Below are positions 1,573-61,996 of a stretch of 64,000 nt of DNA, piece by piece; the first letter of the stretch is position 1, and the number at the start of each line of letters is the position of its first letter. The translations under genes and the position numbers were made by a program. The stretch lies in NCBI GenBank assembly GCA_964406305.1, contig CAYORF010000002.1:130-64129 (forward strand), given 5' to 3'. The notes beneath the pieces are model-generated. The model ran no database searches and was not told where the DNA came from. It saw only the letters and a program-made list of their open reading frames with translations. This stretch comes from an uncultured Anaerolineales bacterium. Its GTDB lineage: Bacteria > Chloroflexota > Anaerolineae > Anaerolineales > UBA11858.

Positions 1573-1600
1573 TGACAGATGTTGATTAAGTCCATATAAT
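1572..1600 (+). promoter_or_regulatory. Sigma-70 consensus promoter of the ilv-leu operon
   Basis: TTGACA (1572-1577), a 17-nt spacer, then TATAAT (1595-1600). Confidence 0.6.
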
Positions 1601-1650
1601 CCTGCCTAATATCTAAACATTAATTTTTTAAAAAGTTCCACAAAACAACA

Positions 1651-1773
1651 ATGATCAATACTGTATTGTCCTTCATCCTTATTCTAATTAGCCTTTTGGT
1701 TCTTATCCTGATTTTGGGGATTGCGAACCCCGTATCCGGTTGGGCATTTAGGAAGGTGAAGAACAAGAAGTAA
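1651..1773 (+). CDS. ilv-leu leader peptide (40 codons, Ile/Leu/Val rich)
   Basis: Encodes MINTVLSFILILISLLVLILILGIANPVSGWAFRKVKNKK. There are 7 Ile, 8 Leu and 4 Val; 16 of the 20 codons at residues 5-24 are I/L/V. A terminator follows. The ORF is below the size cutoff of the ORF track. Confidence 0.7.
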   Translation: MINTVLSFILILISLLVLILILGIANPVSGWAFRKVKNKK

Positions 1774-1802
1774 CAGAACACATTCCAAAGTTTTTTTGAA
1801 AA

Positions 1803-1834
1803 GTCGCCCATCCGGGCGGCTTTTTTTGTTTTAG
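1803..1834 (+). terminator. Intrinsic terminator (attenuator) directly upstream of the ilvD RBS
   Basis: Stem GTCGCCC / loop ATCC / stem GGGCGGC, followed by TTTTTTTGTTTT. The upstream segment CCGGTTGGGC (1736-1745) is 9/10 complementary to GCCCATCCGG (1806-1815), giving an alternative antiterminator. Confidence 0.75.
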
Positions 1835-1842
1835 GAGCAAAC

Positions 1843-13791: not shown

Positions 13792-14733
13792 ATGAGTTTC
13801 AGATCTGAATATGTCTGGCTAAACGGAAAACTTCTCCCTTACGATGATGCTTTGATCCATGTGAATACGAGTTCATTGCATTATGGGTACGGTGTTTTTG
13901 AGGGGATTCGTGCCTATCAAACAGACCAAGGACCTGCTGTATTTCGACTCAGAGATCATTTTGAACGATTCTTGAATTCAGCTCTTATTCTGGGTTTGCA
14001 GGACTCCCCGTACAGCGTCGAAGAATTAACCGAGGCAACCCACCAAGTTATCCGTGAGAATAAGTATCAAGCATGTTATATTCGGCCGTTATTATTCTTT
14101 GCAGAATCTCTTGATTTGAACTTAGATCATGCCACACCGCAGGTAAGCATTACAGCCTGGGAGTGGGGATCTTACCTTGGAGAAGGGAGTTTGGAAAAAG
14201 GTGTCCATATGGGTGTTTCCTCTTTAACAAGACATCACATGAATGTGAATTTCACCAAGGCAAAAATCACCGGGAATTATGCCAATTCGGTCATCGCCAA
14301 AACAGATGCTGTCAGAAATGGTTTTGATGAAGCGATTATGCTGGACCCGGAAGGACATGTTGCCGAATGCACAGGAGAGAATCTTTTCCTGGTTAAGAAA
14401 GGGGTCATATATACCCCCCCGAAGGCCGCGATCCTGGAAGGAATTACACGGGATTCGTTGATGATCTTGGCTGGGGACCTAGGTTACAAAGTGGTAGAGG
14501 AAACAATCTCCCGTGACCAACTATACATTGCGGACGAGGTATTTGCCTGTGGTACGGCTGCTGAACTTACACCTGTTACTAAAATTGATCATCGCATAAT
14601 TGGGCATGGAAAAATGGGCCCAGTGACAAACAAACTCCAAAAATTATTTTTTGAGACAGTTGGAGGAAAGGGAGAACGATCCGCAGAATGGCTGGATTAT
14701 GTGAAGTTAGCAACTCCTGAAGGAACCAAATGA
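13792..14733 (+). CDS. ilvE: Branched-chain amino-acid aminotransferase (fold type IV)
   Basis: 313 aa. Contains LHYGYGVFEGIRAY and GITRDS motifs. Confidence 0.92.
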   Translation: MSFRSEYVWLNGKLLPYDDALIHVNTSSLHYGYGVFEGIRAYQTDQGPAVFRLRDHFERFLNSALILGLQDSPYSVEELTEATHQVIRENKYQACYIRPLLFFAESLDLNLDHATPQVSITAWEWGSYLGEGSLEKGVHMGVSSLTRHHMNVNFTKAKITGNYANSVIAKTDAVRNGFDEAIMLDPEGHVAECTGENLFLVKKGVIYTPPKAAILEGITRDSLMILAGDLGYKVVEETISRDQLYIADEVFACGTAAELTPVTKIDHRIIGHGKMGPVTNKLQKLFFETVGGKGERSAEWLDYVKLATPEGTK

Positions 14734-15572
14734 CCAACTCCAGAGTGGCGTTCCAGGGAGAACCAGGGGCTTATAGTGAACTGGCTGCCATGGAATATTT
14801 TGGTGAGATGGCAAACAGCTTACCATTTGAGTCCTTTAGAGACGTCTTTGCTGCTGTCGAGACCGGAAAAGCCGAATATGGGATCCTGCCTATTGAGAAT
14901 TCACTCGCTGGCAGCATCCATCAGAATTATGATTTACTGCTGGAGAATGATCTTCTAATTATAGGAGAGTACCTTCTAAGGGTCTCACATTGCTTGTTGT
15001 CATTACCCGGAACGAAGTTGGAAGATATTGAACGGGTTCGATCCCATCCTCAGGCCTTGGCTCAATGTGCAAGCAATCTGAACCAGATGGCCGTTGATCC
15101 TGTGATCGCCAACGACACAGCCGGCAGTGCCCGCCTGTTAGCTGAAAACAAAGAAACCGGGACTGCTGTTCTGGCATCCCGACGAGCCGCTGAAGTATAT
15201 GGCCTGGAGATTTTGCGGGAAGATATGGAAGATAACAAGGAGAATTACACCCGGTTTGTGATTTTGGCTGGAATTGATTCAATTTTAAAAAGCGTTTTGC
15301 CCGGAGATGAATCCAAGACCTCGATTGTATTTAATTTAGACCATGAACCCGGGACGTTATACAAAGCGTTAAGTGTGTTTGCACTGGCTGAAATTGATCT
15401 CACAAAAATAGAATCCAGACCCATCGCAGGAAAACCCTGGCAGTATATGTTCTATATTGATTTTGCTGAGAAAGAAAATTCCCGGGTGGGAAAACAGGCA
15501 CTGGACAAGTTAAGTAAATTTACGCCTTTCTTGAAAGTATTGGGGTCATATCCCAGGCACCGGATTAAATGA
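14730..15572 (+). CDS. pheA: Prephenate dehydratase with C-terminal ACT domain
   Basis: 280 aa. Contains VAFQGEPGAYSE, TRF and ESRP motifs. The start overlaps the ilvE stop (ATGA). Confidence 0.9.
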   Translation: MTNSRVAFQGEPGAYSELAAMEYFGEMANSLPFESFRDVFAAVETGKAEYGILPIENSLAGSIHQNYDLLLENDLLIIGEYLLRVSHCLLSLPGTKLEDIERVRSHPQALAQCASNLNQMAVDPVIANDTAGSARLLAENKETGTAVLASRRAAEVYGLEILREDMEDNKENYTRFVILAGIDSILKSVLPGDESKTSIVFNLDHEPGTLYKALSVFALAEIDLTKIESRPIAGKPWQYMFYIDFAEKENSRVGKQALDKLSKFTPFLKVLGSYPRHRIK

Positions 15573-15598
15573 AGGTAGTTGACAAACGGATCCTGACC

Positions 15599-15627
15599 TT
15601 GACTTATATTAGGAAGGTCATTATAAT
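15599..15627 (+). promoter_or_regulatory. Sigma-70-like promoter of the aromatic operon
   Basis: TTGACT (15599-15604), a 17-nt spacer, then TATAAT (15622-15627). A second TTGACA lies at 15579-15584. Confidence 0.55.
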
Positions 15628-15639
15628 CCGTAAAATCTT

Positions 15640-15726
15640 ATGAACAGTAACCTGTGTCTTCGCTCCAAATATTATGCCTTCTATTTTACCGGCTATACAT
15701 ATCCGATAGCCGTTGGTAGGCATTAA
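15640..15726 (+). CDS. Aromatic-operon leader peptide (28 codons, Tyr/Phe rich)
   Basis: Encodes MNSNLCLRSKYYAFYFTGYTYPIAVGRH, with 5 Tyr and 2 Phe within codons 11-21. It starts about 12 nt after the -10 hexamer, so it is nearly leaderless. Confidence 0.7.
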   Translation: MNSNLCLRSKYYAFYFTGYTYPIAVGRH

Positions 15727-15756
15727 GCGTATTTGAGATCGAGACTCATTGTGTGC

Positions 15757-15793
15757 AGCGCGAAACCAACGGTTTCGCGTTTTTTGTTTTTTA
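15757..15793 (+). terminator. Intrinsic terminator (attenuator) upstream of aroH
   Basis: Perfect 9-bp stem CGCGAAACC / loop AAC / stem GGTTTCGCG, followed by TTTTTTGTTTTTT. CCGTTGG (15710-15716, at the 3' end of the leader ORF) is complementary to CCAACGG (15766-15772), which spans the terminator loop and 3' arm. Confidence 0.8.
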
Positions 15794-15810
15794 AGAGGAG
15801 AAATTAATTT

Positions 15811-16185
15811 ATGGCAATTAGAGGAATTAGGGCAGCAGTAGTAGTCGAAAAAGATCAGGCCAATGAAATAGTATCATCCACCAGGGAATTGCTTGAGGAG
15901 ATCCAGAAAGCTAATCCAACCCTGCAGGCGGAAAATATAGGCAGCGTGATCTTCACAACCACACCGGACCTCATATCAGCTTATCCAGCCAGAGCAGCCC
16001 GGGAGATCGGATGGGAGAATGTGCCCTTGCTCTGCTGTCAGGAAATACCTGTGCCAGAGAGTTTGCCCCTTTGTATCCGGATCTTGATCCACTGGAATAC
16101 TGAATTAGATCAGCAGGAGATTAATCATATCTATCTTGGACAGGCTGGAAAACTTCGGCCTGATCTGGCAGATAGAACCTTATAA
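15811..16185 (+). CDS. aroH: Chorismate mutase, AroH (monofunctional trimeric) type
   Basis: 124 aa. The start MAIRGIRAAVVVEKD and the LRPDL tail resemble Bacillus AroH. Confidence 0.85.
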   Translation: MAIRGIRAAVVVEKDQANEIVSSTRELLEEIQKANPTLQAENIGSVIFTTTPDLISAYPARAAREIGWENVPLLCCQEIPVPESLPLCIRILIHWNTELDQQEINHIYLGQAGKLRPDLADRTL

Positions 16186-16197
16186 GGAAAATTCATC

Positions 16198-17232
16198 ATG
16201 ATGGTAATAATGAATGCCAATGCAACAAAAACAGAAATTGATAATGTTGTTCAAAAAGTCGAAGAATATGAACTGAATCCCCATGTCATCATCGGCTCAG
16301 AACGGGTCGTCATTGCCGCCAGTGGAGATCCGAGAGAAGTTGATTACAGAATATTTAATGTTCTGCCGGGAGTGGAGCAAGTGATTACCATTTCCCCTCC
16401 CTATAAACTCGCCTCACGGGAGTTCCATCCAAACGATTCCGAAATCTCGATCCCGGGACTGGTAAAAGATCCCGGGGATATTTTGATCATTGCCGGCCCT
16501 TGTTCAGTGGAGAGCAGGACCCAACTCCTCGAAACAGCCCAGGCGGTTAAGGAAGCTGGCGCCCATATGCTCCGGGGTGGCGCATTTAAACCGCGAACTT
16601 CCCCCTACTCTTTCCAGGGATTGGGAGATGAAGGATTAAAGATATTGGCGGAAGCCCGCGAAATTACTGGGCTGCCCATCATCACAGAAGCCATGGCAAT
16701 CAAAGATATTGAAGTTATCTCTGAATATGGAGCTGTTATCCAGATCGGAGCAAGGAATATGCAGAATTATTCCTTATTGCGCTCAGCTGGAAAATGTCAG
16801 ATGCCTGTCCTGTTGAAGCGGGGTATGATGGCCACTATTGATGAATTATTATTATCTGCGGAATATATCCTGGCTCATGGCAATCCGGAAGTAATGATCT
16901 GTGAGCGCGGCATTCGAACCTTTGAACAAAGCACTCGCTACACTGCGGATATAAATGCGCTGCCTGTATTAAAATCAAAAACCCACTTACCGGTTTTATT
17001 TGATCCCAGTCACAGCACGGGGCATTGGGAATATGTCCTGCCTGTTGCTCTGGCCGGTATTGCTGCCGGCGCTGACGGCCTGATTGTCGAAGTGCATCCC
17101 CATCCAGAAAAAGCCCTCTCAGATGGGCAGCAATCGCTAAAACCAGAAAGATTCTATGACCTAGTATCCCAGGTAAATAAAATGGCCCAGATGATGAGAG
17201 AAGAACCCGTATTTGCTGGATCAGGGGTCTGA
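16198..17232 (+). CDS. aroG: DAHP synthase, type I-beta, with an N-terminal ferredoxin-like/ACT regulatory domain
   Basis: 344 aa. The C-terminal KDO8P/DAHP synthase core contains IAGPCSVES and DPSH. The roughly 70-aa N-terminal extension is MMVIMNANATKTEIDNVV... Confidence 0.88.
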   Translation: MMVIMNANATKTEIDNVVQKVEEYELNPHVIIGSERVVIAASGDPREVDYRIFNVLPGVEQVITISPPYKLASREFHPNDSEISIPGLVKDPGDILIIAGPCSVESRTQLLETAQAVKEAGAHMLRGGAFKPRTSPYSFQGLGDEGLKILAEAREITGLPIITEAMAIKDIEVISEYGAVIQIGARNMQNYSLLRSAGKCQMPVLLKRGMMATIDELLLSAEYILAHGNPEVMICERGIRTFEQSTRYTADINALPVLKSKTHLPVLFDPSHSTGHWEYVLPVALAGIAAGADGLIVEVHPHPEKALSDGQQSLKPERFYDLVSQVNKMAQMMREEPVFAGSGV

Positions 17233-17234
17233 TC

Positions 17235-18077
17235 GTGAAATCTCTCAGAGTATCAATTTTAGGAATGGGTTTGATGGGAGGATCCCTGGCCTGGGCATTA
17301 AAGGGCCAGGTCAACTCGCTGATGGCGGCAGATCCTGACAGTCATACCAGGGACCAGGTACGGTCGGCAGGACTTGTGGAATCCATTGTTGAAAATCCGG
17401 AAGAAATACTGCCCCTATCAGATGTTGTGATCCTGGCTGCTCCGGTAGGATCGATTCTGGAGCTAATACCCAAAATCCCTGATTGGCATCCCGGGCAGGC
17501 AATAGTTCTCGACCTTGGTTCTACGAAGGAACAAATATGCAAACAATTGGAAAAACTCCCTTCTCGGTTTGATGTTCTTGGCGGCCACCCCATCTGTGGG
17601 CAGGTCCAGGGAGGTTTCGAACATGCAAATCCAGACTTATTCAGGGATGCAATATTTGCATTTTCAGATCTATCAAACACGTCCGCCAGATGCAGAAGGT
17701 TTGGAGAAGATCTGGCAGCATCTATTGGCGCAATACCCTCCTGGATCGATCCCATTCAGCATGATTATATTTTGAGTGCAACCAGCCACCTGCCGTATAT
17801 ACTCGCGGCAGCACTATGCCTAAACACACCGGAAGGTTCAATCTTATACAGAGGTCCTGGTTTTGAAAGTAGCAGCAGATTAGCCAGTACAAATAGAAGG
17901 ATGATGTTTGATGTATTAAATTCAAATCGTCACAATATTCTGCAACAAATGGAACAATTTCAGCATATTTTGGAAGAATTCAAGGATCATCTTCAGCAGG
18001 AGAATAACCCGAAATTATTGGCCTTGATGGATCGGGCCGCCGCAATTCAGAAAGAAACCACTCGGGAGGTATTGTGA
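17235..18077 (+). CDS. tyrA: Prephenate (or arogenate) dehydrogenase
   Basis: 280 aa, GTG start. Contains the NAD-binding ILGMGLMGGSLA and the GGHPICG motif. Confidence 0.85.
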   Translation: MKSLRVSILGMGLMGGSLAWALKGQVNSLMAADPDSHTRDQVRSAGLVESIVENPEEILPLSDVVILAAPVGSILELIPKIPDWHPGQAIVLDLGSTKEQICKQLEKLPSRFDVLGGHPICGQVQGGFEHANPDLFRDAIFAFSDLSNTSARCRRFGEDLAASIGAIPSWIDPIQHDYILSATSHLPYILAAALCLNTPEGSILYRGPGFESSSRLASTNRRMMFDVLNSNRHNILQQMEQFQHILEEFKDHLQQENNPKLLALMDRAAAIQKETTREVL

Positions 18078-19249
18078 AAAGTCCTGGCTCCCAGCGATTA
18101 GAAAATCTTTCATCCAATTATTTTTCCACTCTGAATGAGAAAATTTCTGATTTGATGTCAAAAGGAAAAAGTGTAATCCGGCTGGATATAGGATCACCTG
18201 ATCTCTCGCCTCCGACGAATGTCATTGAGCAATTATCAATCACTGCAGAGCTGCCATCCAGTCATGGGTATCAAGCTCACAGGGGATCCTCATCGCTCCG
18301 GCAGGCCTGGGCAGACCATTACAGGAAGAAGCACGGGGTTGATCTTGATCCGGACAGCCAGATCTTGCCCTTGATCGGTTCAAAAGAAGGGATCTTTCAT
18401 CTGTCTTTGGCCCTGATTGACCCTGGAGACCAGGTGCTCATCCCCGATCCGGGATATCAAACCTACACTGCAGGAACTCGATTTGCTGGTGGAATTCCAC
18501 GATTTGTATCCTGTCTTTCTGGGGATGATTTTATTAACAGTTTAAGAAAAATACCAACCCAGGATCTTAATCGTACCAAGCTCATGTGGGTGAATTTTCC
18601 CCACAATCCTACAGGATCGACCATAAGTTTAGATCAGGCCCGCCAGCTGGTCGATTTTGCCCGGGAGCATGATATTCTACTATGTCATGACGCTGCCTAT
18701 TCCCAGGTCGTTTATGGAGAATATAAAGCTCCCAGCTTTTTGGAAGGGAATGTTCCGGGGGATAATATCATTGAGTTCAATTCATTATCCAAATCTCACA
18801 ATATGGCAGGTTGGAGATTAGGCATGATTGCGGGGGGCCAGGACATTCTACAAAAGCTGTTATTAGTCAAAACCCATGCAGATAGTGGTCATTTCCTGCC
18901 AATGATGGAAGCTGGCATACAAGCATTAAAAACAAACCAATCCTGGCTGGATACCAGAAACCTCATTTACCAATCAAGAAGGGATCTGGTTGTGGATGCT
19001 CTCTCTTCCCTGGATATGGATATGGAAAAGCCATCTGGCGCTATATATATCTGGTTTCCTGTACCGGGAAAATTGTCATCAGAAGAATTTACTTCTCTTA
19101 TGCTGGAGCGATACATGGTAGCACTAACGCCGGGAAATCTCTTTGGCTCCAGGGGAGAAGGATTTATTCGATTATCAATTACTGCACCTAAGGATCAGCT
19201 CCAGGAAGGACTAAATCAACTATCTAAAGGGATCCAATCAATACGTTAG
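18074..19249 (+). CDS. Class I PLP aminotransferase; probable aromatic/prephenate aminotransferase from context
   Basis: 391 aa. Contains NFPHNPTG and the SLSKSHNMAGWRLG PLP-lysine motif. GTGA overlap with tyrA. Confidence 0.75.
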   Translation: MKSPGSQRLENLSSNYFSTLNEKISDLMSKGKSVIRLDIGSPDLSPPTNVIEQLSITAELPSSHGYQAHRGSSSLRQAWADHYRKKHGVDLDPDSQILPLIGSKEGIFHLSLALIDPGDQVLIPDPGYQTYTAGTRFAGGIPRFVSCLSGDDFINSLRKIPTQDLNRTKLMWVNFPHNPTGSTISLDQARQLVDFAREHDILLCHDAAYSQVVYGEYKAPSFLEGNVPGDNIIEFNSLSKSHNMAGWRLGMIAGGQDILQKLLLVKTHADSGHFLPMMEAGIQALKTNQSWLDTRNLIYQSRRDLVVDALSSLDMDMEKPSGAIYIWFPVPGKLSSEEFTSLMLERYMVALTPGNLFGSRGEGFIRLSITAPKDQLQEGLNQLSKGIQSIR

Positions 19250-19337
19250 GATTGATTTTGGCTGTCTTGATATAGACGATGATTTATTAAACTAAAAAAG
19301 TAACTGAAGATTATCCAACGAAAGGGAAATAAGTATT

Positions 19338-20657
19338 ATGAAAATAGTTCGCAGTGGTCCACTGAGAGGAAACATAAAATTATCAGGAGATAAATCAATC
19401 TCTCACAGGGCTATATTGTTGGCAGCTATTGCAGAAGGAGAGAGCAGAATTCAGAACCTGCTGGTTGCCGGGGTGACAAAAAAAATGCTGACTGCCTTGA
19501 GCGAGCTCGGTGTGGAGTGGCGGTTGGACGGCAGCAACCTGATTGTGACCGGCAGAGGATTAAAGGGATTACAATCACCAGGAAAGTCTCTCGACTGCGG
19601 TAACTCAGCGACCACGATGAGGATGCTGGCAGGTGTCTGTTCTGCATCCGGGATCAATGTAAACCTGGATGGCTCTCCTGGTTTAAAAACCAGGCCCATG
19701 TCCAGGATTGTTAATCCCCTTGGAGAAATGGGTGTAATCATCCAGGCTCAGGAGCCAGGGAAAACAGCACCACTGCAGATTCAGGGCAGAAGGTCCGATC
19801 AATCCTTAATAGCGATTGATTATTCATCCCCAATTTCCAGTGCCCAGGTCAAATCCTGTCTATTACTGGCGGGTCTGGCTACGAATGGAGTTATCCATTA
19901 TAAAGAACCCCGTGCATCCCGTGATCATACCGAGCGGTTATTATCCAGACTGGGAGTAAATATCGATCGATCGGAAGCAAAGGATGGATCAGTTCAGATC
20001 ACCATGGATCCCCGGGGTTGTCTTCCCCTCCCACCTTTAATTACTACGATCCCTGGAGATATCTCATCAGCAGCTTTTCTGATCGTTGCAGCATTAATTA
20101 CACCTAATTCTGAGATCACCATCCAGGAAGTTGGTCTTAATCCCACTAGAACAGGCTTGTTGGAAGCGTTATTAATGATGGGCGCAGATCTCGAAATTAA
20201 TAATACAGGTGAGCTAAATAATGAACCAAGAGGTGATATCACAGTCCGACACAGCCACCTGCGGGGAATCCATCTCCCGGAATCGTTAGTGGTTAAAATG
20301 ATCGATGAAATCCCGATATTTACTGCAGCTGCAGCCTATGCAAATGGCAAGACCCTTGTCTCAGGTGCAGGTGAGCTGCGGGTAAAAGAAACAGATCGGA
20401 TTGCAGCCATACAAATGGAATTCAACAAATTAGGGGTAAACCTGAAGGAGAATAAAGATGGATTCTCACTGCAAGGTCATCCAACGCTTCAGGGAGGAAA
20501 AGTCCAATCCCATGGAGACCACCGTATGGCAATGTCCCTGGCAGTGGCTGGTCTGGGAGCTGAAAAATCTGTTGAAATTCAGAATGCGGAGATAACTGCC
20601 GAATCCTATCCCAACTTTGCATCTGACCTGCGGGACCTGGGAGCCCAAGTGGAGTGA
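19338..20657 (+). CDS. aroA: EPSP synthase (3-phosphoshikimate 1-carboxyvinyltransferase)
   Basis: 439 aa. Contains LSGDKSISHRAILLAA and DHRMAMS motifs. Confidence 0.93.
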   Translation: MKIVRSGPLRGNIKLSGDKSISHRAILLAAIAEGESRIQNLLVAGVTKKMLTALSELGVEWRLDGSNLIVTGRGLKGLQSPGKSLDCGNSATTMRMLAGVCSASGINVNLDGSPGLKTRPMSRIVNPLGEMGVIIQAQEPGKTAPLQIQGRRSDQSLIAIDYSSPISSAQVKSCLLLAGLATNGVIHYKEPRASRDHTERLLSRLGVNIDRSEAKDGSVQITMDPRGCLPLPPLITTIPGDISSAAFLIVAALITPNSEITIQEVGLNPTRTGLLEALLMMGADLEINNTGELNNEPRGDITVRHSHLRGIHLPESLVVKMIDEIPIFTAAAAYANGKTLVSGAGELRVKETDRIAAIQMEFNKLGVNLKENKDGFSLQGHPTLQGGKVQSHGDHRMAMSLAVAGLGAEKSVEIQNAEITAESYPNFASDLRDLGAQVE

Positions 20658-21538
20658 TGACAGAGAGAATGATACACCTGGGTCTAATAGGTTACCCGCT
20701 GGGGCATAGCTTCTCAAAAATCCTCCAGGAAGAAGCGTTTCGGAGCACAGGTATAAAAGGGAACTATCATTTGTGGGAGGTCCCTGCCACGCCTGTGGGC
20801 GATCTGGCTCTACAATCCAGATTGGAAGATGTCAGAACAGGCCAGATTATGGGGATAAATGTGACAATACCTCACAAAGAGCGCATTATTCCATTTTTGG
20901 ATGCTCTTACTCCTATCGCATCCGCAATTGGCGCGGTGAATACAATTTTCTGGGATTCCAAAGAAAAAAAACTTTATGGCCACAATACAGATGCACCTGC
21001 TTTCTGGGAAGATTTAAAGAAGCTGATCAACTCTAACCAGGTCCGAAAACAGGCCCTGGTCCTTGGCGCCGGTGGGGCAGCCAGGGCGGTCACATATCAA
21101 TTGCTAGCTAAACACTGGACGGTGTCTATTGCTGCCAGAAAGATAACCAGGGCCAAAGAACTTGCTCACTATTTTTTGAGTCCTGATGCCAAACTGAATT
21201 ATTTTGAACTTGGAAATGGATCGCAGGTCGACCTTGAGCCTTTTGGATTAATTGTCAATACAACCTCAGCAGGCATGGCACCGATGGTTGAAACTTCTCC
21301 CTGGCCTGATAATTGGAGATTTCCATCTGACGCTGTGGTTTATGACCTGGTATACAATCCCGCGGTTCCACAATTTATCAAACAGGCAAAGAGGGCTGGG
21401 TTAAAGACCAGGAACGGATTGGGTATGCTGGTCGAGCAAGCCGCTCTGGCTTTTGAGTGCTGGACAGCAGTAGTTGCACCGCGAGAGGAGATGCTGAAGG
21501 CCGTAACTGGCATCTACCAAAATCTACTCAGTGAATAA
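20654..21538 (+). CDS. aroE: Shikimate dehydrogenase
   Basis: 294 aa. Contains LIGYPLGHSFS, NVTIPHK and GAGGAARA motifs. Overlaps the aroA stop. Confidence 0.9.
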   Translation: MMTERMIHLGLIGYPLGHSFSKILQEEAFRSTGIKGNYHLWEVPATPVGDLALQSRLEDVRTGQIMGINVTIPHKERIIPFLDALTPIASAIGAVNTIFWDSKEKKLYGHNTDAPAFWEDLKKLINSNQVRKQALVLGAGGAARAVTYQLLAKHWTVSIAARKITRAKELAHYFLSPDAKLNYFELGNGSQVDLEPFGLIVNTTSAGMAPMVETSPWPDNWRFPSDAVVYDLVYNPAVPQFIKQAKRAGLKTRNGLGMLVEQAALAFECWTAVVAPREEMLKAVTGIYQNLLSE

Positions 21539-21592
21539 TCTCACGGGGTTGGTATTTCATTATATAGAAATGATCAAAAGGAAATCAAATCA

Positions 21593-22777
21593 ATGTCTAG
21601 ATTAAGATTCTTAACAAGTGGCGAATCTCACGGACCGGAACTTCTGGCAATCTTGGAAGGAATACCCGCAGGTTTATCCATCTCCGAAGATATCATCAAT
21701 CACCAGTTGGGCCGCCGGCAGCGTGGATCTGGTGCGGGCAACCGGATGAAAATTGAAAAGGACCAGGCAACCCTGGTCAGTGGTCTCATGGACGGAAAGA
21801 CGATTGGTTCTCCAATCGGGATCAGGATTACCAATCTAAACCATGAGGAATGGCGAGGAAAAGAAATTAGCCCTTTCACTATCCCCCGACCCGGACATGT
21901 CGATCTAACAGGCGCGCTGAAATACGGGTATCAGGATTTGCGTCCGTCTCTGGAACGGGCCTCTGCCCGCGAAACAGCCGCCAGGACAGCCGTGGGCACG
22001 ATCTGCAGGCACTTTCTCGAACAATTCTCAATTCAAGTTGGAGGTTGGGTATCTTCAATTGGACCTGTTGTGATGGAAAGCGTCCAAATTACAGGTGAAA
22101 CATTCCCGGATTTGGTCGAACGGGCAGAGGCTACAGGGACCCGTTGTCCTGATCCAGCCACAGCAAAACTAATGGACGCTGCTATTCGCGAGGTAAAGAA
22201 AGCGGGTGATACTCTCGGGGGAGTGATCGAAATCGCAGTTATGGGACTGCCACCCGGTTTAGGGTCATTTATGCATTGGGACAGGAAGCTGGATGCTCGT
22301 TTGGGTGCTGCGGTCCTGGGAATCCCGGCTATCAAAGGAATTGAAATTGGTAGAGCTTTTGAAAATACGAAAAAAAGAGGAACAGAAATCCAGGATCCAA
22401 TCCGATCCAGTGAAGGCAATATATATCGCCCTACCAACCGGGCTGGCGGATTGGAAGGAGGAGTCACTAATGGAAACCCGCTGATCATCCGGGCTGCGAT
22501 GAAACCGATTGCCACAACCATCACTCCCCAGCAGACTGTGGATCTGATAAACCAACAAGAATCTACATCCAAATATGAGCGGTCGGATTTCTGTCCAGTT
22601 CCCCGCGCTGTACCCATCATTGAAGCAGTGGTATCTTTTATATTGGCAGATGCTCTTATTGAAAAACTGGGTGGGGATTCTTTAGCTGAAATGCTTCCGA
22701 GGTTTAATAACCTGCCCAAATCCCGGTTTTCTGATCTCAATCTTGATAACGAAAAACATATCTGGTGGCCTGTATGA
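21593..22777 (+). CDS. aroC: Chorismate synthase
   Basis: 394 aa. Contains LTSGESHGPEL and RSDFCPVPRA motifs. Confidence 0.93.
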   Translation: MSRLRFLTSGESHGPELLAILEGIPAGLSISEDIINHQLGRRQRGSGAGNRMKIEKDQATLVSGLMDGKTIGSPIGIRITNLNHEEWRGKEISPFTIPRPGHVDLTGALKYGYQDLRPSLERASARETAARTAVGTICRHFLEQFSIQVGGWVSSIGPVVMESVQITGETFPDLVERAEATGTRCPDPATAKLMDAAIREVKKAGDTLGGVIEIAVMGLPPGLGSFMHWDRKLDARLGAAVLGIPAIKGIEIGRAFENTKKRGTEIQDPIRSSEGNIYRPTNRAGGLEGGVTNGNPLIIRAAMKPIATTITPQQTVDLINQQESTSKYERSDFCPVPRAVPIIEAVVSFILADALIEKLGGDSLAEMLPRFNNLPKSRFSDLNLDNEKHIWWPV

Positions 22778-24345
22778 ACAATGGGAAAATGATTTTCCTT
22801 TACGGTCCTCCTTTGTCAGGTAAATCAACAATTGGAGAAATGTTCGCCCGTCGGGTGGATCTGCCTTTTTACGATCTCGACAAACTGATCGAGTCCAGGA
22901 CAGTCATGACCATTCCAGAGATATTTTCTACTAAAGGTGAAGATTATTTTCGGGATTTGGAATGCAGCGTTCTGGAAGAGATATGCAATGACGAAACAGG
23001 TATTGTGGCACTGGGTGGGGGAGCGCTGATCAGGAGCAAAGCTCGGAAGCTTGTTGAGGATCGGGGAGAGGTAATCCTTTTGCAGGCCTCCTCTCAAGTT
23101 CTGATCTCCCGGATGAAAGGGGATCAAAACAAACGGCCTTTGCTGGGCGCTTCAACGGAGAAAGAAATAATTGATCTGCTCAACAAACGGGAAGAGCACT
23201 ATAACTCGTTTCCTGCTCAAATCCAAACAGACCAAGATACAGTGGACGATATCCTCTTTGAGCTGGAGGCCCTGCTGGGAGTATTTCTTGTTTCTGGAAT
23301 GGGTACCAGTTATCAGGTACAATTTTCCTCCGGTATTGTGAATGATTTGGGAAAGAAACTTCGGCTGCTGAAACGAGGTGGTCCAATCACAGTTGTATCA
23401 GACCAAAATGTCGCAGATCTTTATGCAGGAAGTGTTCTCGCCTCTCTGGATGAAGCCGGATATCAATCATCCTTGATCGTCTTTCCTCCTGGTGAAAACT
23501 CGAAAACAATGGATACAGTGCAGAACATATGGGATGGTTTCCTGAAAGCAAACGTCGATCGGGGAAGCACGGTGATCGCGCTTGGCGGCGGCGTTGTGGG
23601 AGATTTAACCGGATTTGCAGCCGCTACTTTTCATCGTGGAGTAGATTGGGTTAACATACCCACTTCATTGCTGGCGATGGTCGACGCAGGAATCGGGGGG
23701 AAAACCGGTGTGGATCTTCCTCAGGGGAAAAACCTTGTCGGTGCTTTTCACCCGCCCCGCCAGGTCTGGATTGATCCAGGCTTCTTACAATCTTTGCCAG
23801 AAATAGAACTGCAGAATGGGATGGCGGAGGTCATTAAACATGGTGTGATCTCGGACCCGGATTTATTTGCCCTGGCGTTGGAAGGCCGGAGTCCTTTTGA
23901 TCTTAATCGATCAGAAATTTTGAGGCGGGCGGTGGCAGTTAAGGTAGCAATCATCCAGAAAGATCCTTATGATCAAAACCTGCGACAGGTATTGAATTTC
24001 GGCCACACATTAGGGCACGCAGTGGAACTCGCCTCAGATTTCAAACTCAGCCATGGAGAATCAATTGCAATTGGGATGGTGGCGGAAACCCGAACCGCTG
24101 AAATTATGGGATTGACTGCGCCTGGATTGTTAGAAAAAATAATTAGCATTCTCAATGAATGGGATCTGCCAGTTGATCTTCCTTCTTTTCTCTCCCTGGA
24201 AAGAATTTGGGAATCAGTGAGAAGGGATAAGAAAAAATCAGCCGGCAGACTGCAATTTGCCCTTCCATTGAATATTGGTCAGGTCAAAGCCAAAATAGAA
24301 GTAGACGAAAAAACCTGGAAATCCGTATTAAGAATTAGGAAGTGA
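22774..24345 (+). CDS. aroKB: Bifunctional shikimate kinase / 3-dehydroquinate synthase fusion
   Basis: The N-terminal P-loop is LYGPPLSGKSTIG. The C-terminal DHQS region contains GGGVVGDLTGFAAA and HGESIAIG. I chose the start at the ATGA overlap with aroC; the track offers a GTG at 22765. Confidence 0.88.
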   Translation: MNNGKMIFLYGPPLSGKSTIGEMFARRVDLPFYDLDKLIESRTVMTIPEIFSTKGEDYFRDLECSVLEEICNDETGIVALGGGALIRSKARKLVEDRGEVILLQASSQVLISRMKGDQNKRPLLGASTEKEIIDLLNKREEHYNSFPAQIQTDQDTVDDILFELEALLGVFLVSGMGTSYQVQFSSGIVNDLGKKLRLLKRGGPITVVSDQNVADLYAGSVLASLDEAGYQSSLIVFPPGENSKTMDTVQNIWDGFLKANVDRGSTVIALGGGVVGDLTGFAAATFHRGVDWVNIPTSLLAMVDAGIGGKTGVDLPQGKNLVGAFHPPRQVWIDPGFLQSLPEIELQNGMAEVIKHGVISDPDLFALALEGRSPFDLNRSEILRRAVAVKVAIIQKDPYDQNLRQVLNFGHTLGHAVELASDFKLSHGESIAIGMVAETRTAEIMGLTAPGLLEKIISILNEWDLPVDLPSFLSLERIWESVRRDKKKSAGRLQFALPLNIGQVKAKIEVDEKTWKSVLRIRK

Positions 24346-24352
24346 GAGATTT

Positions 24353-24787
24353 ATGATCCAGATATTGGTCTTACATGGTCCGAATCTAAATTTACTTGGA
24401 AAACGCGAAACAAACCTATATGGTGAGAATGGATTGGAAAAACTGAACCAGGATCTCATAAGATATGGACAGGAAAAAGGAGCTCAGATCTCCACCAACC
24501 AGTCCAACATTGAGGGAGAGTTAATTAACTACCTCCATGATGCTGATAAGAAGTATCAAGGGGTTGTTTTTAATCCTGGAGGTTACACCCATACTTCAGT
24601 CGCACTTCATGATGCTGTAAAAGCAATTTCAATCCCTGTTGTAGAAGTGCATATCACAAATATTTTGGGACGGGAAGAATTCCGGCACATATCATTAATC
24701 GCACCTGTCTGCAAAGGAAGCATTTCCGGCTTTGGCGTGAAATCATATCTACTGGGAATTGATGCCCTGCTGCACGATCTGGAATAA
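24353..24787 (+). CDS. aroQ: 3-dehydroquinate dehydratase, type II
   Basis: 144 aa. Contains ILVLHGPNLNLLGKRE and NPGGYTHTSVALHDA. Confidence 0.93.
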   Translation: MIQILVLHGPNLNLLGKRETNLYGENGLEKLNQDLIRYGQEKGAQISTNQSNIEGELINYLHDADKKYQGVVFNPGGYTHTSVALHDAVKAISIPVVEVHITNILGREEFRHISLIAPVCKGSISGFGVKSYLLGIDALLHDLE

Positions 24788-31044: not shown

Positions 31045-31320
31045 TTTCTCCTTAAACAAAAACCACGTCCAAAAGGGACGCGGCTCTTTTCGCGCGGTTC
31101 CACCCAACTTCAATGACGATCACTCGTCAGGCACTCTTTTAAGGATAACGGGTTGCCCCGGAGCCCCATACTCTCATTAACAATGATTTAGGGAACCCAC
31201 TCATGGATGGTTTTCACCTTTGCCTTCACTATAAGGGTTTTCAGCCGGTGACCCTCATTCTCTGGAGTTATCTCAAAGGATACTCGTTCCACTCAACGCT
31301 TTTTCATATTGTGATATTAG
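31045..31320 (-). promoter_or_regulatory. T-box riboswitch leader; probable Thr (ACC) specifier
   Basis: On the minus-strand RNA, Stem I is formed by GGAAC/GTTCC and CCUUUG/CAAAGG, with an AGUA element, an AGAGA box and the specifier-loop string UGAAAACCA. The T-box motif is UUGGGUGGAACCGCG (complement of 31091-31107). The terminator is CCGCGUCC-CUUUU-GGACGUGG followed by UUUUUGUUU. Confidence 0.8.
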
Positions 31321-34790: not shown

Positions 34791-36154
34791 GTTAGGGAAA
34801 CTTGAAAAGTGAACACTTATAAACTTCAAAAGTGAACCCTAAAACCCATCAATGGCAGCAATACAGCGTGCACCATTTTTTCACTCCACCATATTCGAAT
34901 ATGCATCACCCGCTTAGCTGTGTCCGGAACCATGTGAACATCGACATATTCTCGTAGAGGCACTTTGGGTACTTCAATCTCATGATTGAATAGAGAAATT
35001 CTGCGGTATCCATTGATCATCCTTTGAGTGCGCAAGCAGAACACATCTAATGGCGAAGTGTAGGGCTTAGGAAGCGAGAACTTCCGGAAAAGACTGTTCC
35101 CAGATTTCAGAGCTCGTTCAAAACGAATGCTTGGGATTTCACGGGTAGTCGAATGGACCTGATGGTTGTTATAACGGTCGATCTCATCTCTCAAGACACC
35201 CCTACAATCCTCAAACTCAGATATCTCTTCATAAATACAAGTTCTCACCATGCGGTCCTGCAGCCAGCGGTAAGGTCTCTCGACCTTGCCTTTTGCTTGA
35301 GGGGAAAGAGCGTAGGAGACATCCACGTTTATCAGCCGCATCATCTTGCCCCACTGAGTATCCACGTCATCGGTTTCGAGAACATGTCTTCGCCAAAAGC
35401 TATCCCTTCCCTGAACGAAACGAAATACCCGCAAGGAGTCCACATAGTAACGCAAGGGCAATCCATAGGTCATGATCAAGGCCTGGGTAGACTGGATGTG
35501 AGTCCAGGTGGTCTCCGCAGGGAAAAAGTCAGCGAAAAGGATCTTACGACTGTAGTCATCGATGGAGGTAATCAAGGTCCACTTCTTTTTGGACAGGGGA
35601 GACCACATATGAAGGGAGGCGTCATGCTGTACCAATGCACCAATGGAAGCGGTCAATACCTCACGGTCATGAACCTTTCTTTTCCTGCGAGGTTTGTGGC
35701 AGTCCAGTTTCTTGGCCCGGTCAATGATGGTGGTGATGGACACTTCGATCCCTTCCTTATAAAGTCGATCTCTTAGTGCTGTGTAGTTATATCCAGAGAT
35801 CGGCAAATCTGGGTTTTCTATAATCTCTTTCTCCCGTAGTAATGCCTTCTCAACCTCGGATTCCACTTCAGCAGACAATTTGGCAGGAGATTTCCTCTGA
35901 TAAGCGATGGAGAAAGTCTCTGGCCCTTGCCGATAGGTTTTCAGCAAGGCGAAAAACCGTGTTTTACCGATACCCAGAATCTCCTGAATATCGGCTCTTC
36001 TTATCTTGCCCTGGCTATACCTTTGCAGTAATACCTTGATCTGTTCAATAGTGAAGCTCTTATGTAGCTGACCCATTGATTTCTCCTTTTTTCAAGGATA
36101 AATCTATCAGGGTTTGGTAGTAGTGTAGGTGTTCACTTTTCAACTTTATATAAC
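34791..36154 (-). mobile_element. Complete IS; the most diverged member of the same family
   Basis: The ends are GTTAGGGAAAC...TTTATATAAC. Subterminal AAAGTGAAC(A/C) motifs are present. The same 17-mer flanks both sides. Confidence 0.85.
34826..36076 (-). CDS. DDE transposase (rve type), paralog
   Basis: 416 aa, colinear with the other two transposases. The HDAS, YYVDSLRVF and GKVERPYRWLQDR blocks are conserved. Confidence 0.85.
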   Translation of the reverse strand: MGQLHKSFTIEQIKVLLQRYSQGKIRRADIQEILGIGKTRFFALLKTYRQGPETFSIAYQRKSPAKLSAEVESEVEKALLREKEIIENPDLPISGYNYTALRDRLYKEGIEVSITTIIDRAKKLDCHKPRRKRKVHDREVLTASIGALVQHDASLHMWSPLSKKKWTLITSIDDYSRKILFADFFPAETTWTHIQSTQALIMTYGLPLRYYVDSLRVFRFVQGRDSFWRRHVLETDDVDTQWGKMMRLINVDVSYALSPQAKGKVERPYRWLQDRMVRTCIYEEISEFEDCRGVLRDEIDRYNNHQVHSTTREIPSIRFERALKSGNSLFRKFSLPKPYTSPLDVFCLRTQRMINGYRRISLFNHEIEVPKVPLREYVDVHMVPDTAKRVMHIRIWWSEKMVHAVLLPLMGFRVHF

Positions 36155-36171: not shown

Positions 36172-37570
36172 GTTAGCAAAAGATGAAAAGTGGACACCTA
36201 TAAAGTTCAAAAGTGGACACTGAATCCCTGCAAAGGCAGGGAGACAGAATGAACCATCTTCTTGTTCCACCAGATGCGGATGTCCATAAGATCCTTCACT
36301 TCATCAGGCACCAGATGGATGTCAACAAGTTTCTGTAGAGGAACATTAGGGACTTCAATAACGTGTTTGAATAGAGAAATCCGACGGTATCTATTTACCC
36401 GGCGTTGCTCTCTAATACAAAAAACATCTTTCGGCGAAGTATAGGGCGGAGGTAGAGTTAGCTTGCGGAAGAGGCTGTTTCCCGATATCCTGGCTTTTTC
36501 AAACCGGACCTGGGGAATTTCACCGGTGGTTGAATGCACCTGGTGGTTGTTGTAACGGTCAAGTTCAGCTTTCAAAACACTGCGGACCTCATCTTTTTGG
36601 GATAGTTTTTCGTAAACGCATGTGCGGACGATACGATCCTGCAGCCAGCGATAGGGTCTCTCAACTTTGCCTTTTGCCTGCGGGGAAAGAGCATAACTGA
36701 CATCGACACCCAGCAGGCGCATCATCTTTCCCCATTGAGTATCAACATCGTCAGTTTCAAGCACATGTTTGCGCCAAACACTATCTCTACCCTGAACAAA
36801 ACGGAATACACGTAAAGAATCAACATAGTACCGCAAAGGAATCCCATATTGCTGGCACAGGGCCTGGGCCGCCCGAATATGGGCCCAGGTAGTCTCCCTG
36901 GAAACGAAGTCGGCATACAGGAGCTTGCGGCTGAAATCATCAATCGAAGTGATCAGGGTCCATTTCTCCTCCGCAAAGGGGGACCACTTATGTGTGGAAG
37001 CATCATGTTGGATTAGCGCACCTATGGATGAAGTTAGCACTTCCCGGTCATGAGCTTTTCTCTTTTTTCGCGGTTTATGACAATCAAGCTTTTTTGCCCG
37101 ATTGATGATGGTTGGTACAGAGACTTCGATACCGTTCTCTTTCAAGCGATCCTTCATCGCTGAGTAGTTGTATCCCGAGATTGGCAGGTCAGGATCTTCA
37201 ACAACGGCTTTCTCCTGAAGTAACGCTTTTTCTATCTCTGCTTCTGCTCCAGGTGAGATCCTGGCGTGTGTTTTCCGTTGATAGGCAATCGTGAAATGAT
37301 CTGGATCGTTTCGATATTCTTTCAGTAAAACGAAGAAGTGCGACTTGCCAATACCTATCATTTCTTGGAGATCAGTTCTGCTCATTTGTCCCTGGCGGTA
37401 ACTCTTGAATAAAAGCTTGATTTGTTCATCGGTGAAACGTTTGTGGAGCTGTGACATGGGTTCCTCCAGTTTCTATTGGAGGAGAAATCGTATATTATCC
37501 CTTCAAGCTTGTCAAAATCAGGTGTCCAGTTTTCAGGTTTAAACTGTCCACTTTTGAATTTTAAATAACA
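36172..37570 (-). mobile_element. Complete IS; close relative of IS copy 1
   Basis: The ends are GTTAGCAAAAG...TTTTAAATAACA, with the same subterminal TGGACA motifs as copy 1. Confidence 0.85.
36207..37457 (-). CDS. DDE transposase (rve type), paralog
   Basis: 416 aa. It is collinear with the 194..1444 protein and differs by scattered substitutions. Confidence 0.85.
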   Translation of the reverse strand: MSQLHKRFTDEQIKLLFKSYRQGQMSRTDLQEMIGIGKSHFFVLLKEYRNDPDHFTIAYQRKTHARISPGAEAEIEKALLQEKAVVEDPDLPISGYNYSAMKDRLKENGIEVSVPTIINRAKKLDCHKPRKKRKAHDREVLTSSIGALIQHDASTHKWSPFAEEKWTLITSIDDFSRKLLYADFVSRETTWAHIRAAQALCQQYGIPLRYYVDSLRVFRFVQGRDSVWRKHVLETDDVDTQWGKMMRLLGVDVSYALSPQAKGKVERPYRWLQDRIVRTCVYEKLSQKDEVRSVLKAELDRYNNHQVHSTTGEIPQVRFEKARISGNSLFRKLTLPPPYTSPKDVFCIREQRRVNRYRRISLFKHVIEVPNVPLQKLVDIHLVPDEVKDLMDIRIWWNKKMVHSVSLPLQGFSVHF

Positions 37571-37657: not shown

Positions 37658-37747
37658 ATGGACTATCAAGTAAAAATTCACACCAATAATAAACCTCGTC
37701 GAAAGACCCTCCCTCCTTTACCTCTCATCCGGGTAGGTGTTTTTTAG
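37658..37747 (+). CDS. Possible leader peptide (29 codons) with a KPRRK core
   Basis: Encodes [29 protein letters not shown]. There is no SD. It lies between the candidate promoter and a strong terminator. Confidence 0.35.
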
Positions 37748-37767
37748 GCGTACGACAAAACGTTTTT

Positions 37768-37808
37768 AAAAAGCCAGTCTCCATCCGGAGACTGGCTTTT
37801 TTTTTATT
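37768..37808 (+). terminator. Strong intrinsic terminator upstream of argG
   Basis: Perfect 10-bp stem GCCAGTCTCC / loop ATCC / stem GGAGACTGGC, flanked by A5 and T9. Confidence 0.8.
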
Positions 37809-37875
37809 AAGTCGCAGGCATTGGATTTGTATCAATAATGCAAATCGCCGTGATATACAGAGGAGAAAAGTTATC

Positions 37876-55433: not shown

Positions 55434-55830
55434 CAACAGGTTATTAAAAATAAATCAACTGTGAAGAGGGAATAGTAAGCGGCGAAACGCTGGTTCAGAG
55501 AGCAAGGGGTTGGTGAAAACCTTGCCCAGACGCCACCGCTGAATGGACCTCAGAGTTGCAGGGCGAACAGGTTCCTAGAAGAAAATGACCAAAATAGCCC
55601 GAGCCGGGGTTGCTACCGTTACCAAAGCATTGGTTCCGTTGCGTGATAACTTTATTTCCGGTTGGAAATAAAAGAACCTATCATACTTCCGGATCAAGAA
55701 TAAGTGAGGCTGGTTTCTACATTTCCCGTTGTTTCACCAACGGGATCTTGTTGTTAACATCAAAGACAGCCTACACAGGGTGGCACCGCGGGAATCGCCT
55801 CTCGTCCCTGAGACTTGAGGCGATTTTAAT
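55434..55830 (+). promoter_or_regulatory. T-box riboswitch leader, Trp (UGG) specifier
   Basis: It has an AGAGA box (55496-55500) and a GGUGAAAA distal loop. The specifier string is GAA-UGG-A, with UGG at 55544-55546. The T-box motif is GGGUGGCACCGCGG (55778-55791). The terminator is AATCGCCTC...GAGGCGATT followed by TTAATTT (55793-55830). Confidence 0.85.
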
Positions 55831-57956: not shown

Positions 57957-58150
57957 CAAACAAAAAGACATTAAAAGACTAGTATTTAGACTTCGATCCT
58001 CTCGATAACCTGGAGCGCTTCAAAAGAATCATTGGTCATTTCCGTCTTTTAACAGTCAAAAGAGATCAAATAGATATGACACCAAGACTAGATCAAACGA
58101 ACAGAAAAAGCTCAATATTCATTATCCGATGTATGTAAGAGGAGGTTCCC

Positions 58151-59176: not shown

Positions 59177-59218
59177 TGGTAAATGTTACTCCCACCTGCA
59201 AGGAAAATGGTATAGATC

Positions 59219-60034: not shown

Positions 60035-60068
60035 AAAATAATTAAGGCCGATGTAGAGGTCTCCTGTT

Positions 60069-61960: not shown

Positions 61961-61996
61961 GGAAATAATTATTGTAGATATTACCCCGAACAACTT

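Follow-up and report, generated by a model that had tools for sequence, protein, structure and literature searches.

A probable leader-peptide attenuator upstream of the shikimate pathway operon in an uncultured Anaerolineales bacterium

A stretch of 64,000 nucleotides (nt) from an uncultured Anaerolineales bacterium of the phylum Chloroflexota (contig CAYORF010000002.1 of assembly GCA_964406305.1, positions 130 to 64,129 of the forward strand; hereafter the window) contains, upstream of aroH, an element that is very probably a ribosome-mediated, or leader-peptide, transcription attenuator of the aroH operon, as judged from comparative sequence analysis and modeled RNA folding. The element occupies the 238-nt gap between pheA (prephenate dehydratase with an ACT domain, 14730-15572) and aroH (type I chorismate mutase, 15811-16185). 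The gap contains, from 5' to 3', a promoter, a 12-nt spacer, a leader open reading frame (ORF) rich in Tyr and Phe codons, a terminator hairpin with a T-run, and the ribosome-binding site of aroH. The aromatic pathway encoded downstream would most likely be turned on by this element when Tyr or Phe runs short.

The leader ORF and its aromatic codon run

The leader ORF (15640-15726, plus strand) consists of 28 codons followed by TAA and encodes MNSNLCLRSKYYAFYFTGYTYPIAVGRH; orthologous ORFs are found in most of 85 related loci. Codons 11-21 (15670-15702) form the putative regulatory run, Y Y A F Y F T G Y T Y, with five Tyr and two Phe codons, exactly as a preliminary description of this DNA had reported; all five Tyr codons are TAT. 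Phe, Tyr and Trp account for 6.4% of the codons in 27 window genes, which gives a probability of 1.2e-6 per position for at least seven aromatic codons in 11. Only three places across all six frames of the 64 kilobases (kb) reach this value. The run alone is suggestive, and because three places in the window attain the same density, its significance rests on its position and its conservation.

AroH homologues assign the window to the class Anaerolineae of the Chloroflexota. Conservation was assessed in 80 aroH loci from GTDB species representatives and five metagenome contigs (73-80% AroH identity), which make up the 85 loci. In nearly all Anaerolineae loci, a promoter, a small ORF, a terminator and aroH follow one another as in the window. 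Among the GTDB representatives, no species has more than 63% AroH identity to the window, and the nearest leaders come from the metagenome contigs. The preliminary description had proposed that homologous leaders be compared for Tyr and Phe enrichment persisting through sequence drift, and such enrichment was found: at least six F/Y/W codons in 11 occur in 88% of 77 aroH-upstream segments versus 2.0% of 904 control segments taken from these loci, and at least seven in 68% versus 0.3%. In the related loci, the frame of the ORF contains a mean of 6.9 aromatic codons, compared to 1.6 and 1.7 in the other two frames.

The pattern of substitution within the run is that of codons. In an alignment of 52 sequences, the first codon position of the run is T in 48-52 of the 52, the second is A or T (Tyr or Phe) and the third is T or C. 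One slot is aromatic in all 52 sequences (TAT 23, TTT 22, TAC 7), and so is another (TAT 27, TTT 21 and a single TAC, TTC and TGG each, with one sequence showing a one-base alignment gap). Triplet periodicity is strict and Tyr and Phe interchange freely; for example, YYAFYF of the window becomes YFTYYF or YFAFYF in the close relatives with 73-80% AroH identity. The peptides otherwise drift (e.g., MKLSNRFYFAYYFYG..., MLKSARWFAFYFYYG... and MNKHAFFTTNYYYYYG...), while the aromatic run, the position of the stop codon and the terminator persist. Averaged over 76 leaders, the best 12-residue segment contains 3.3 Phe, 3.6 Tyr and 0.4 Trp. A Trp codon is present in 29 of the 76 leaders and absent from that of the window.

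The 3' part of the ORF is conserved in a different manner. Eight of the 52 core leaders carry a hairpin-loop indel that changes the frame, so that the same nucleotides are read as ...RLPLAALK and translation ends at an adjacent TAG, whereas the remaining core leaders read ...AVGGA and end at TAA. Since these eight leaders read the nucleotides of the antiterminator strand (segment 2, below) in another frame, this part of the ORF is conserved as RNA, and the feature kept at its 3' end is a stop codon at a fixed place. Most leaders end in GCTTAAGTAG (alignment A2, columns 64-70; 15723-15729 in the window), which provides the stops TAA and TAG in two frames, and leaders with hairpin-loop indels that are not a multiple of three use the second stop. 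This double stop looks like a built-in tolerance to frameshifts that would hold the stop position constant relative to segment 2.

The promoter assigned to the leader is of the sigma-70 type (15599-15627, plus strand) and is composed of TTGACT (15599-15604), a 17-nt spacer and TATAAT (15622-15627), matching 11 of 12 consensus positions. It is the top-scoring promoter-like site in a scan of the 12-26 kb region and is kept in the close relatives (loci L081-L085), and most related loci carry an equivalent CTTGAC-N17-TAGAAT. A TTGACA at 15579 was also considered and was rejected in favor of the site at 15599-15627 because it is not conserved in the close relatives. The sequence between the -10 hexamer and the ATG, CCGTAAAATCTT (15628-15639), contains no Shine-Dalgarno sequence and measures exactly 12 nt, in line with the approximate spacing given earlier. 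All five window-clade sequences share this 12-nt distance, 33 other loci have exactly 10 nt, and most of the remaining loci fall at 8-13 nt. Such a fixed and short spacing implies a 5' untranslated region (UTR) of a few nt; with transcription starting where the spacing suggests, the leader ORF would begin about 3-6 nt from the 5' end of the transcript and would be nearly leaderless. Lineages with longer UTRs carry a GGAGG-like Shine-Dalgarno sequence 5-10 nt ahead of the leader ATG. Both start patterns, the fixed short spacing and the Shine-Dalgarno sequence found in long-UTR lineages, argue for a leader ORF that would be translated.

The operon that would be controlled by the element (15811-24787, plus strand) comprises nine genes: aroH, DAHP synthase, tyrA, an aminotransferase, aroA, aroE, aroC, an aroK-aroB fusion and aroQ. 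Pfam matches of the encoded proteins (CM_1 chorismate mutase, DAHP synthase, prephenate dehydrogenase, class I/II aminotransferase, EPSP synthase, shikimate dehydrogenase, chorismate synthase, shikimate kinase fused to dehydroquinate synthase, and dehydroquinase II) bear out the previously proposed gene content for every gene. The nine genes account for all seven steps of the shikimate pathway as well as for chorismate mutase and the Tyr branch, and they overlap or are closely packed. The products of the operon are chorismate, prephenate and Tyr. The order aroH, DAHP synthase, tyrA (followed in some loci by aroA) is kept in most related loci, and pheA lies within the operon in about 11 of them. 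The ribosome-binding site of aroH (GAGGAG, 15795-15800) and its ATG at 15811 (together 15795-15813, plus strand) are both outside the terminator; control is therefore expected at the level of transcription.

Alternative RNA structures and modeled switching

The RNA of the window leader can fold into three alternative helices, which are described with the segment numbering used for classic attenuators. Segment 1 (CGGCTAT, 15690-15696) is the 5' arm of the 1:2 hairpin and overlaps codons T17-G18-Y19. Segment 2 (15706-15717) comprises ATAGCCG (15706-15712), the 3' arm of the same hairpin, and AGCCGTTGGT (15708-15717), the 5' strand of the antiterminator; it lies within codons 23-26, with the stop codon 7 nt downstream. 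The 1:2 hairpin, which had been overlooked earlier, has 7 base pairs (bp) in the minimum-free-energy fold, and its 5' arm overlaps the aromatic run while its 3' arm overlaps the antiterminator strand. With this hairpin present, the classic 1:2 / 2:3 / 3:4 layout is complete. Segment 3, ACCAACGGTT (15765-15774), is the 3' strand of the antiterminator and corresponds to the top of the 5' arm of the terminator, its loop and the first 4 nt of its 3' arm. All these segments are on the plus strand.

The intrinsic terminator (3:4; 15757-15792, plus strand) has an 11-bp stem, AGCGCGAAACC / GGTTTCGCGTT, with an AAC loop (15757-15781), followed by TTTTTTGTTTTTT (15780-15792). Its hairpin has a free energy of -13.8 kcal/mol, and no other terminator-like site scored as well in the scan of 14 kb (12-26 kb). 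The antiterminator is formed by AGCCGUUGGU (15708-15717) and ACCAACGGUU (15765-15774), which pair over 10 bp, including one G-U, with a duplex energy of -17.7 kcal/mol. The perfect terminator and T-run noted in the preliminary description are thus present, and the complementarity that it had pointed out between CCGTTGG (15710-15716) and CCAACGG (15766-15772) extends to 10 bp. A small hairpin, UGAG-AUCGAGA-CUCA (15734-15748, plus strand), appears between the stop codon and the terminator when 15706-15776 is folded and would sit within the antiterminator loop; a comparable hairpin (ACAG...CUGU or AGAG...CUCU) is discernible by eye in most relatives.

These structures are conserved in the family. 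The 1:2 hairpin and the terminator together have 92% of their alignment cells paired, with compensatory double-sided changes in 11 of 18 pairs, values that were equaled by none of 500 shuffles and by no control with slid columns. The 1:2 helix is 90% paired, with four of eight pairs changed on both sides, and the terminator is 95% paired, with compensatory changes in seven of 10 pairs. RNAalifold predicts both helices independently. The antiterminator is 87% paired in the family versus 32-41% with the partner columns slid, and GCCGTTGG in segment 2 is almost invariant. Furthermore, three columns covary: column 57 in segment 2 (U/C) changes with column 116 in the 5' arm of the terminator (A/G), and 116 with column 127 in the 3' arm, the counts being 21 for U-A-U and 10 for C-G-C (Fisher p = 0.005, not corrected for phylogeny). 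In one locus, L051, segments 1, 2 and 3 are altered together, to TAT-GGC / GCC-A-TTGG / CCAA-T-GGC.

An alignment-free test, in which terminators were located by an RNAfold-based search, gave a consistent result. The stretch from the aromatic run to the stop codon pairs with the 5' arm and loop of the terminator beyond the level of shuffled sequences (median z = -2.5), with z < -2 in 44 of 68 loci, including those of a second structural class, in which the terminators are of the CGTGGAGC type and the peptides have unrelated C-termini. Each locus gives a single hit with a covariance model made from the 52 sequences, and the hit is always immediately upstream of aroH. The model matches held-out loci at 122 bits (L035), 73 bits (L013), 59 bits (L047 and L018), 53 bits (L009) and 49 bits (L027). 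In the window, it scores 74.7 bits at 15664-15799, with the window sequence being part of the training set, and gives only weak matches elsewhere.

Folding of the full leader at equilibrium always yields the terminator. As equilibrium folding alone cannot discriminate between the models, it was replaced by folding of transcripts of rising length with a 30-nt ribosome footprint masked. In this model, when no ribosome is present, the 1:2 hairpin forms, none of the 10 antiterminator pairs appears and the terminator forms. When the A site of the ribosome is at Y15, F16 or Y19, or transiently at Y12 or F14, all 10 antiterminator pairs are found once 15772-15774 has been transcribed, and the antiterminator under a stalled ribosome is the minimum-free-energy structure for transcripts ending at 15774-15780, until the 3' arm of the terminator is complete. 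With the A site at Y21 or the stop codon, the ribosome covers the antiterminator strand, no antiterminator pair forms and the terminator results. The last outcome agrees with the earlier proposal that a terminating ribosome would mask the antiterminator, and the modeling of alternative folds suggested at the time reproduces the expected switch. The modeled behavior is that expected of a kinetically controlled attenuator.

Collectively, these results suggested the following mechanism. Transcription would begin a few nt after the TATAAT at 15622-15627, and a ribosome would translate the 28-codon ORF from its nearly leaderless 5' end. An ample supply of Tyr-tRNA and Phe-tRNA would let the ribosome reach the TAA at 15724 and cover segment 2 (15706-15717); when the ORF is not translated, segment 1 (15690-15696) would pair with segment 2. 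With segment 2 either covered or paired with segment 1, segment 3 would remain free, the terminator (15757-15792) would fold, and transcription would stop before aroH. When charged Tyr-tRNA or Phe-tRNA is scarce, the ribosome would stall in the run at 15670-15702 and cover segment 1. Segment 2 would then pair with segment 3 (15765-15774) as it emerges, occupying the top of the terminator, and RNA polymerase would proceed into the nine genes of the operon, which serve the shikimate pathway as well as chorismate mutase and the Tyr branch. Readthrough transcripts from pheA, in which the ORF lies deep inside the RNA and has no Shine-Dalgarno sequence, would probably default to termination.

Alternative explanations and relation to known regulators

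Several observations weigh against attenuation by a translating ribosome. Once the full terminator has been transcribed with the ribosome stalled, the terminator fold (-27.4 kcal/mol) is on a par with the antiterminator fold (-26.8 kcal/mol) or slightly favored over it; because the two are then nearly isoenergetic, the switch would rely on kinetics. The Tyr codons Y19 and Y21 are inside the 1:2 hairpin, and a stall at Y21 is predicted to be unproductive. The window ORF is devoid of a Shine-Dalgarno sequence, so that translation would have to begin from a 5' UTR of about 3-6 nt. The shuffle control of the antiterminator is weak, with 6-35 of 500 shuffles reaching the observed values, because the antiterminator columns are so conserved, and the covariation statistics ignore phylogeny.

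The leader might instead be an untranslated RNA switch, i.e., a riboswitch or an RNA bound by a protein or a tRNA, which would act on the same terminator and antiterminator while the seemingly aromatic stretch is an RNA motif. The missing Shine-Dalgarno sequence fits such a switch, as does the conservation of the 3' part of the ORF as nucleotides rather than as peptide, GCCGTTGGYGGCGCTTAAG being kept though eight of 52 leaders use a different frame; the organism also possesses RNA-sensing leaders, given the two T-boxes in the window. However, an untranslated switch does not account for the triplet periodicity and the interchange of Tyr and Phe in one frame only, which runs from a conserved ATG to a stop codon, nor for distant lineages that differ in RNA sequence and terminator and yet keep the aromatic ORF, some of them with a canonical Shine-Dalgarno sequence. 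No Rfam family, including the T-box, matches the region even at E ≤ 10, and the four irregularly placed (G/U)AG triplets do not make up a TRAP-type site. We therefore regard an RNA switch of this kind as improbable. It is still harder to believe that the parts are unrelated, in that the hairpin and T-run would end the upstream ilv-leu-pheA transcript, a separate promoter would drive aroH, and the small ORF would have arisen by chance. It is true that no other terminator lies between the pheA stop (15572) and the promoter, and that chance produces three spans with at least seven aromatic codons in 11 in 64 kb. But the terminator is downstream of the promoter and would stop the transcripts of that promoter too, the order promoter-ORF-terminator-aroH is kept in about 70 loci, most of them without pheA upstream, and the aromatic ORF is enriched 44-fold over the control segments.

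The peptide itself might also be the sensor or the product, as a TnaC-like arrest peptide that senses free aromatic amino acids through its C-terminus (...AVGGA) or as a functional micropeptide. The C-terminal pattern P-x-AVG-G/R-A/H, common to the window and many relatives, could be taken to favor this explanation, which nevertheless has very little probability in our view: the N-terminal halves show no conservation, the C-termini of other structural classes are unrelated, and the eight core leaders with the shifted frame read the same nucleotides as ...RLPLAALK and stop at the neighboring TAG in place of TAA. Because these leaders use another frame there, a C-terminal arrest motif acting at the peptide level was rejected.

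Searches for known regulators returned little. Apart from four sub-threshold matches at E ≤ 10 (E 1.1-3.9), cmscan of 15400-15950 identified no known leader, riboswitch or T-box at the Rfam gathering threshold or at E ≤ 10. Three of these matches (DUF3800-I, L20_leader and Atu_C9) overlap with the hairpin of the terminator, and the fourth, SPRY4-IT1_2, is located upstream of it (15414-15522). None of the Rfam amino acid leader families (Phe, Trp, His, Leu and Thr leaders and the leu/phe leader) matched the same region at E ≤ 10. The Escherichia coli attenuators are represented in Rfam by Phe_leader and Trp_leader, and at E ≤ 10 cmscan revealed no homology of the aro leader to these pheL/trpL families. 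A T-box leader (RF00230) at the aro locus was likewise not matched at the gathering threshold or at E ≤ 10; the two true T-boxes of the window score 98-104 bits. A TRAP-type leader was considered as well. TRAP-regulated leaders of the trp type contain 9-11 (G/U)AG triplets that are 2-3 nt apart, whereas inspection of the aro leader sequence gave only four with irregular spacing (TAG at 15707 and 15717, GAG at 15735 and 15741). A full-text literature search, of incomplete coverage so that an earlier description is possible, retrieved no report of this element in Chloroflexota. Comparative-genomics surveys of attenuators by Russian groups date from around 2010.

The closest analogy is found in Corynebacterium glutamicum, where a Phe-Tyr-Phe leader peptide, aroR, attenuates the DAHP synthase operon (aroF) and ribosome stalling raises readthrough, according to the accounts of this system in PMC11802643 (citing Neshat 2014) and PMC4046766. 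In both cases, a mixed Phe/Tyr leader lies upstream of an operon that starts the shikimate pathway. However, aroR contains three regulatory codons, compared to 6-9 in the Chloroflexota leaders, and belongs to the unrelated phylum Actinomycetota. In addition, the Chloroflexota operon includes all seven shikimate steps, chorismate mutase and tyrA, and a Trp codon occurs in 29 of 76 leaders, unlike the aroR-aroF system. The likeness is an analogy only, given the distance between the phyla and the unequal lengths of the peptides.

Compared to the attenuators of E. coli pheL-pheA and trpL-trpEDCBA (PMC11802643, PMC3082878), the aro leader has the same overall logic, with regulatory codons overlapping segment 1, alternative 1:2, 2:3 and 3:4 helices, and a stop codon just after segment 2. 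The E. coli leaders differ in sensing a single amino acid, in having a Shine-Dalgarno-led ORF and in controlling a terminal branch rather than the common pathway. Furthermore, the antiterminator of the aro leader pairs with the apical part of the terminator, from the top of its 5' arm across the loop into the beginning of its 3' arm. Precedents for leaderless leader peptides also exist in Deinococcus deserti (PMC4007540), in the polycysteine short ORFs of mycobacteria (bioRxiv 10.1101/834739) and in ilvB of C. glutamicum (Morbach 2000, as cited in PMC4046766). As in those cases, the ORF of the aro attenuator has no Shine-Dalgarno sequence and would be at or within a few nt of the 5' end; the starts in those organisms have been mapped, whereas we infer the near-leaderless start of the aro leader from the conserved 8-13-nt distance between -10 hexamer and ATG only. 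T-box leaders (RF00230) resemble the proposed aro attenuator in that tRNA charging is sensed by a terminator/antiterminator switch in the 5' leader of an amino acid biosynthesis operon. However, a T-box works by direct binding of uncharged tRNA and does not require translation, and the aro leader has no T-box features.

The aro leaders make up a family that is new in sequence, in structure and in its phylum, within a well-known kind of regulator for which aroR-aroF of C. glutamicum and the leaderless leader peptides are precedents. The preliminary description had held that a single peptide-sensing switch for the common pathway is not a standard arrangement; this stands for control of the whole common pathway, which is somewhat unusual, and has to be tempered by the precedents just named. 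The 6-9 mixed aromatic codons and the near-leaderless start are likewise somewhat unusual traits. With some reserve, we lean toward a wider interpretation in which the leaders form a seemingly undescribed, Anaerolineae-wide attenuator family that would act as a master switch of the whole shikimate pathway. Many members would read Trp, Phe and Tyr together (e.g., MLKSARWFAFYFYYG), the leaders would be essentially leaderless with a fixed -10-to-ATG spacing, and at least two RNA architectures would be used with the aromatic run kept. The terminator may, in addition, be where untranslated readthrough from the operon upstream ends by default.

Wastewater sludge, digesters, sediments and groundwater harbor abundant Anaerolineae, and to our knowledge, gene regulation in Chloroflexota has hardly been studied experimentally. 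The aro leader family provides a regulatory element of the central aromatic pathway that has good support and lends itself readily to testing, and it could enter RNA family databases and serve the annotation of many metagenome-assembled genomes. It would also be an example of one genome that combines classic attenuation and T-boxes and divides the labor between them, and its conserved near-leaderless start would provide a natural system for the coupling of transcription and translation without a Shine-Dalgarno sequence. The understanding of the attenuation mechanism itself is left unchanged.

Variant leaders and other elements of the window

A second class of aro leaders is found in L028, L032-L034, L044-L046, L048, L053, L054, L073 and L080. 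These loci have a CGTGGAGC...GCTCCACG terminator and a longer ORF (...GRLLH...) that contains the antiterminator strand GGTTGCTTCACG; a canonical Shine-Dalgarno sequence is frequent among them, and they retain the aromatic run (e.g., DYFAYYYAY or CYYYF). Further variants occur in the more distant L018, L074-L076, L078 and L079. In L035, a group II intron without an ORF (2439-2981) is inserted between the attenuator terminator (covariance model match at 2234-2368) and aroH (3001). It has Rfam scores of 129 bits (group-II-D1D4-3), 61 bits (D1D4-1) and 43 bits (domain V/VI), and its 3' part is also present in L071. The insertion is reminiscent of those bacterial group II introns whose homing sites lie beside intrinsic terminators.

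A candidate leader-peptide attenuator is also present upstream of ilvD in the window (1573-1835, plus strand). It has a TTGACA-17-TATAAT promoter and an ORF at about 1652-1774 that encodes MINTVLSFILILISLLVLILILGIANPVSGWAFRKVKNKK, rich in Ile, Leu and Val, followed by the terminator GTCGCCCATCCGGGCGGC and a T-run. The sequence CCGGTTGGGC in the 3' part of this ORF has one mismatch to the complement of the terminator 5' arm and loop, which is the design of the aro leader, and the aro covariance model matches the ilvD leader weakly (E = 0.13). The operon behind it is ilvD-ilvB-ilvN-ilvC-leuA-leuCD-(a second leuA/cimA-like gene)-leuB-ilvE-pheA. Since an Ile/Leu/Val-rich leader ORF and a terminator precede ilvD, it is suggested that the organism uses such control elsewhere.

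Another leader lies upstream of argG in an arg / LysW-type lys cluster (37658-37806, plus strand) and consists of a small ORF and a strong terminator, GCCAGTCTCC-ATCC-GGAGACTGGC, with a T-run; its enrichment in Arg and Lys codons is weak. A weak match of the aro model at 37711-37815 (E = 0.011) was rejected as a second copy of the aro leader, as it belongs to this different leader.

The two T-boxes of the window are located at 55452-55812 (plus strand), with a UGG (Trp) specifier, ahead of trpE-G-D-C-F-B-A (55855-62791), and at 31071-31305 (minus strand), ahead of hom, aspartokinase and asd on the same strand. Thus, within the window, the trp branch appears to use a T-box, and the common pathway and the Tyr branch a leader peptide that is free of Trp codons.

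Three ORFs of identical length (416 amino acids) are found on the minus strand at 194-1444, 34826-36076 and 36207-37457. One of them has a weak match to an integrase core (rve_3), and the upstream ends of the first and third copies are near-identical (1430-1560 versus 37440-37560). They are probably three copies of one insertion sequence, each adjoining the promoter region of an amino acid operon leader.

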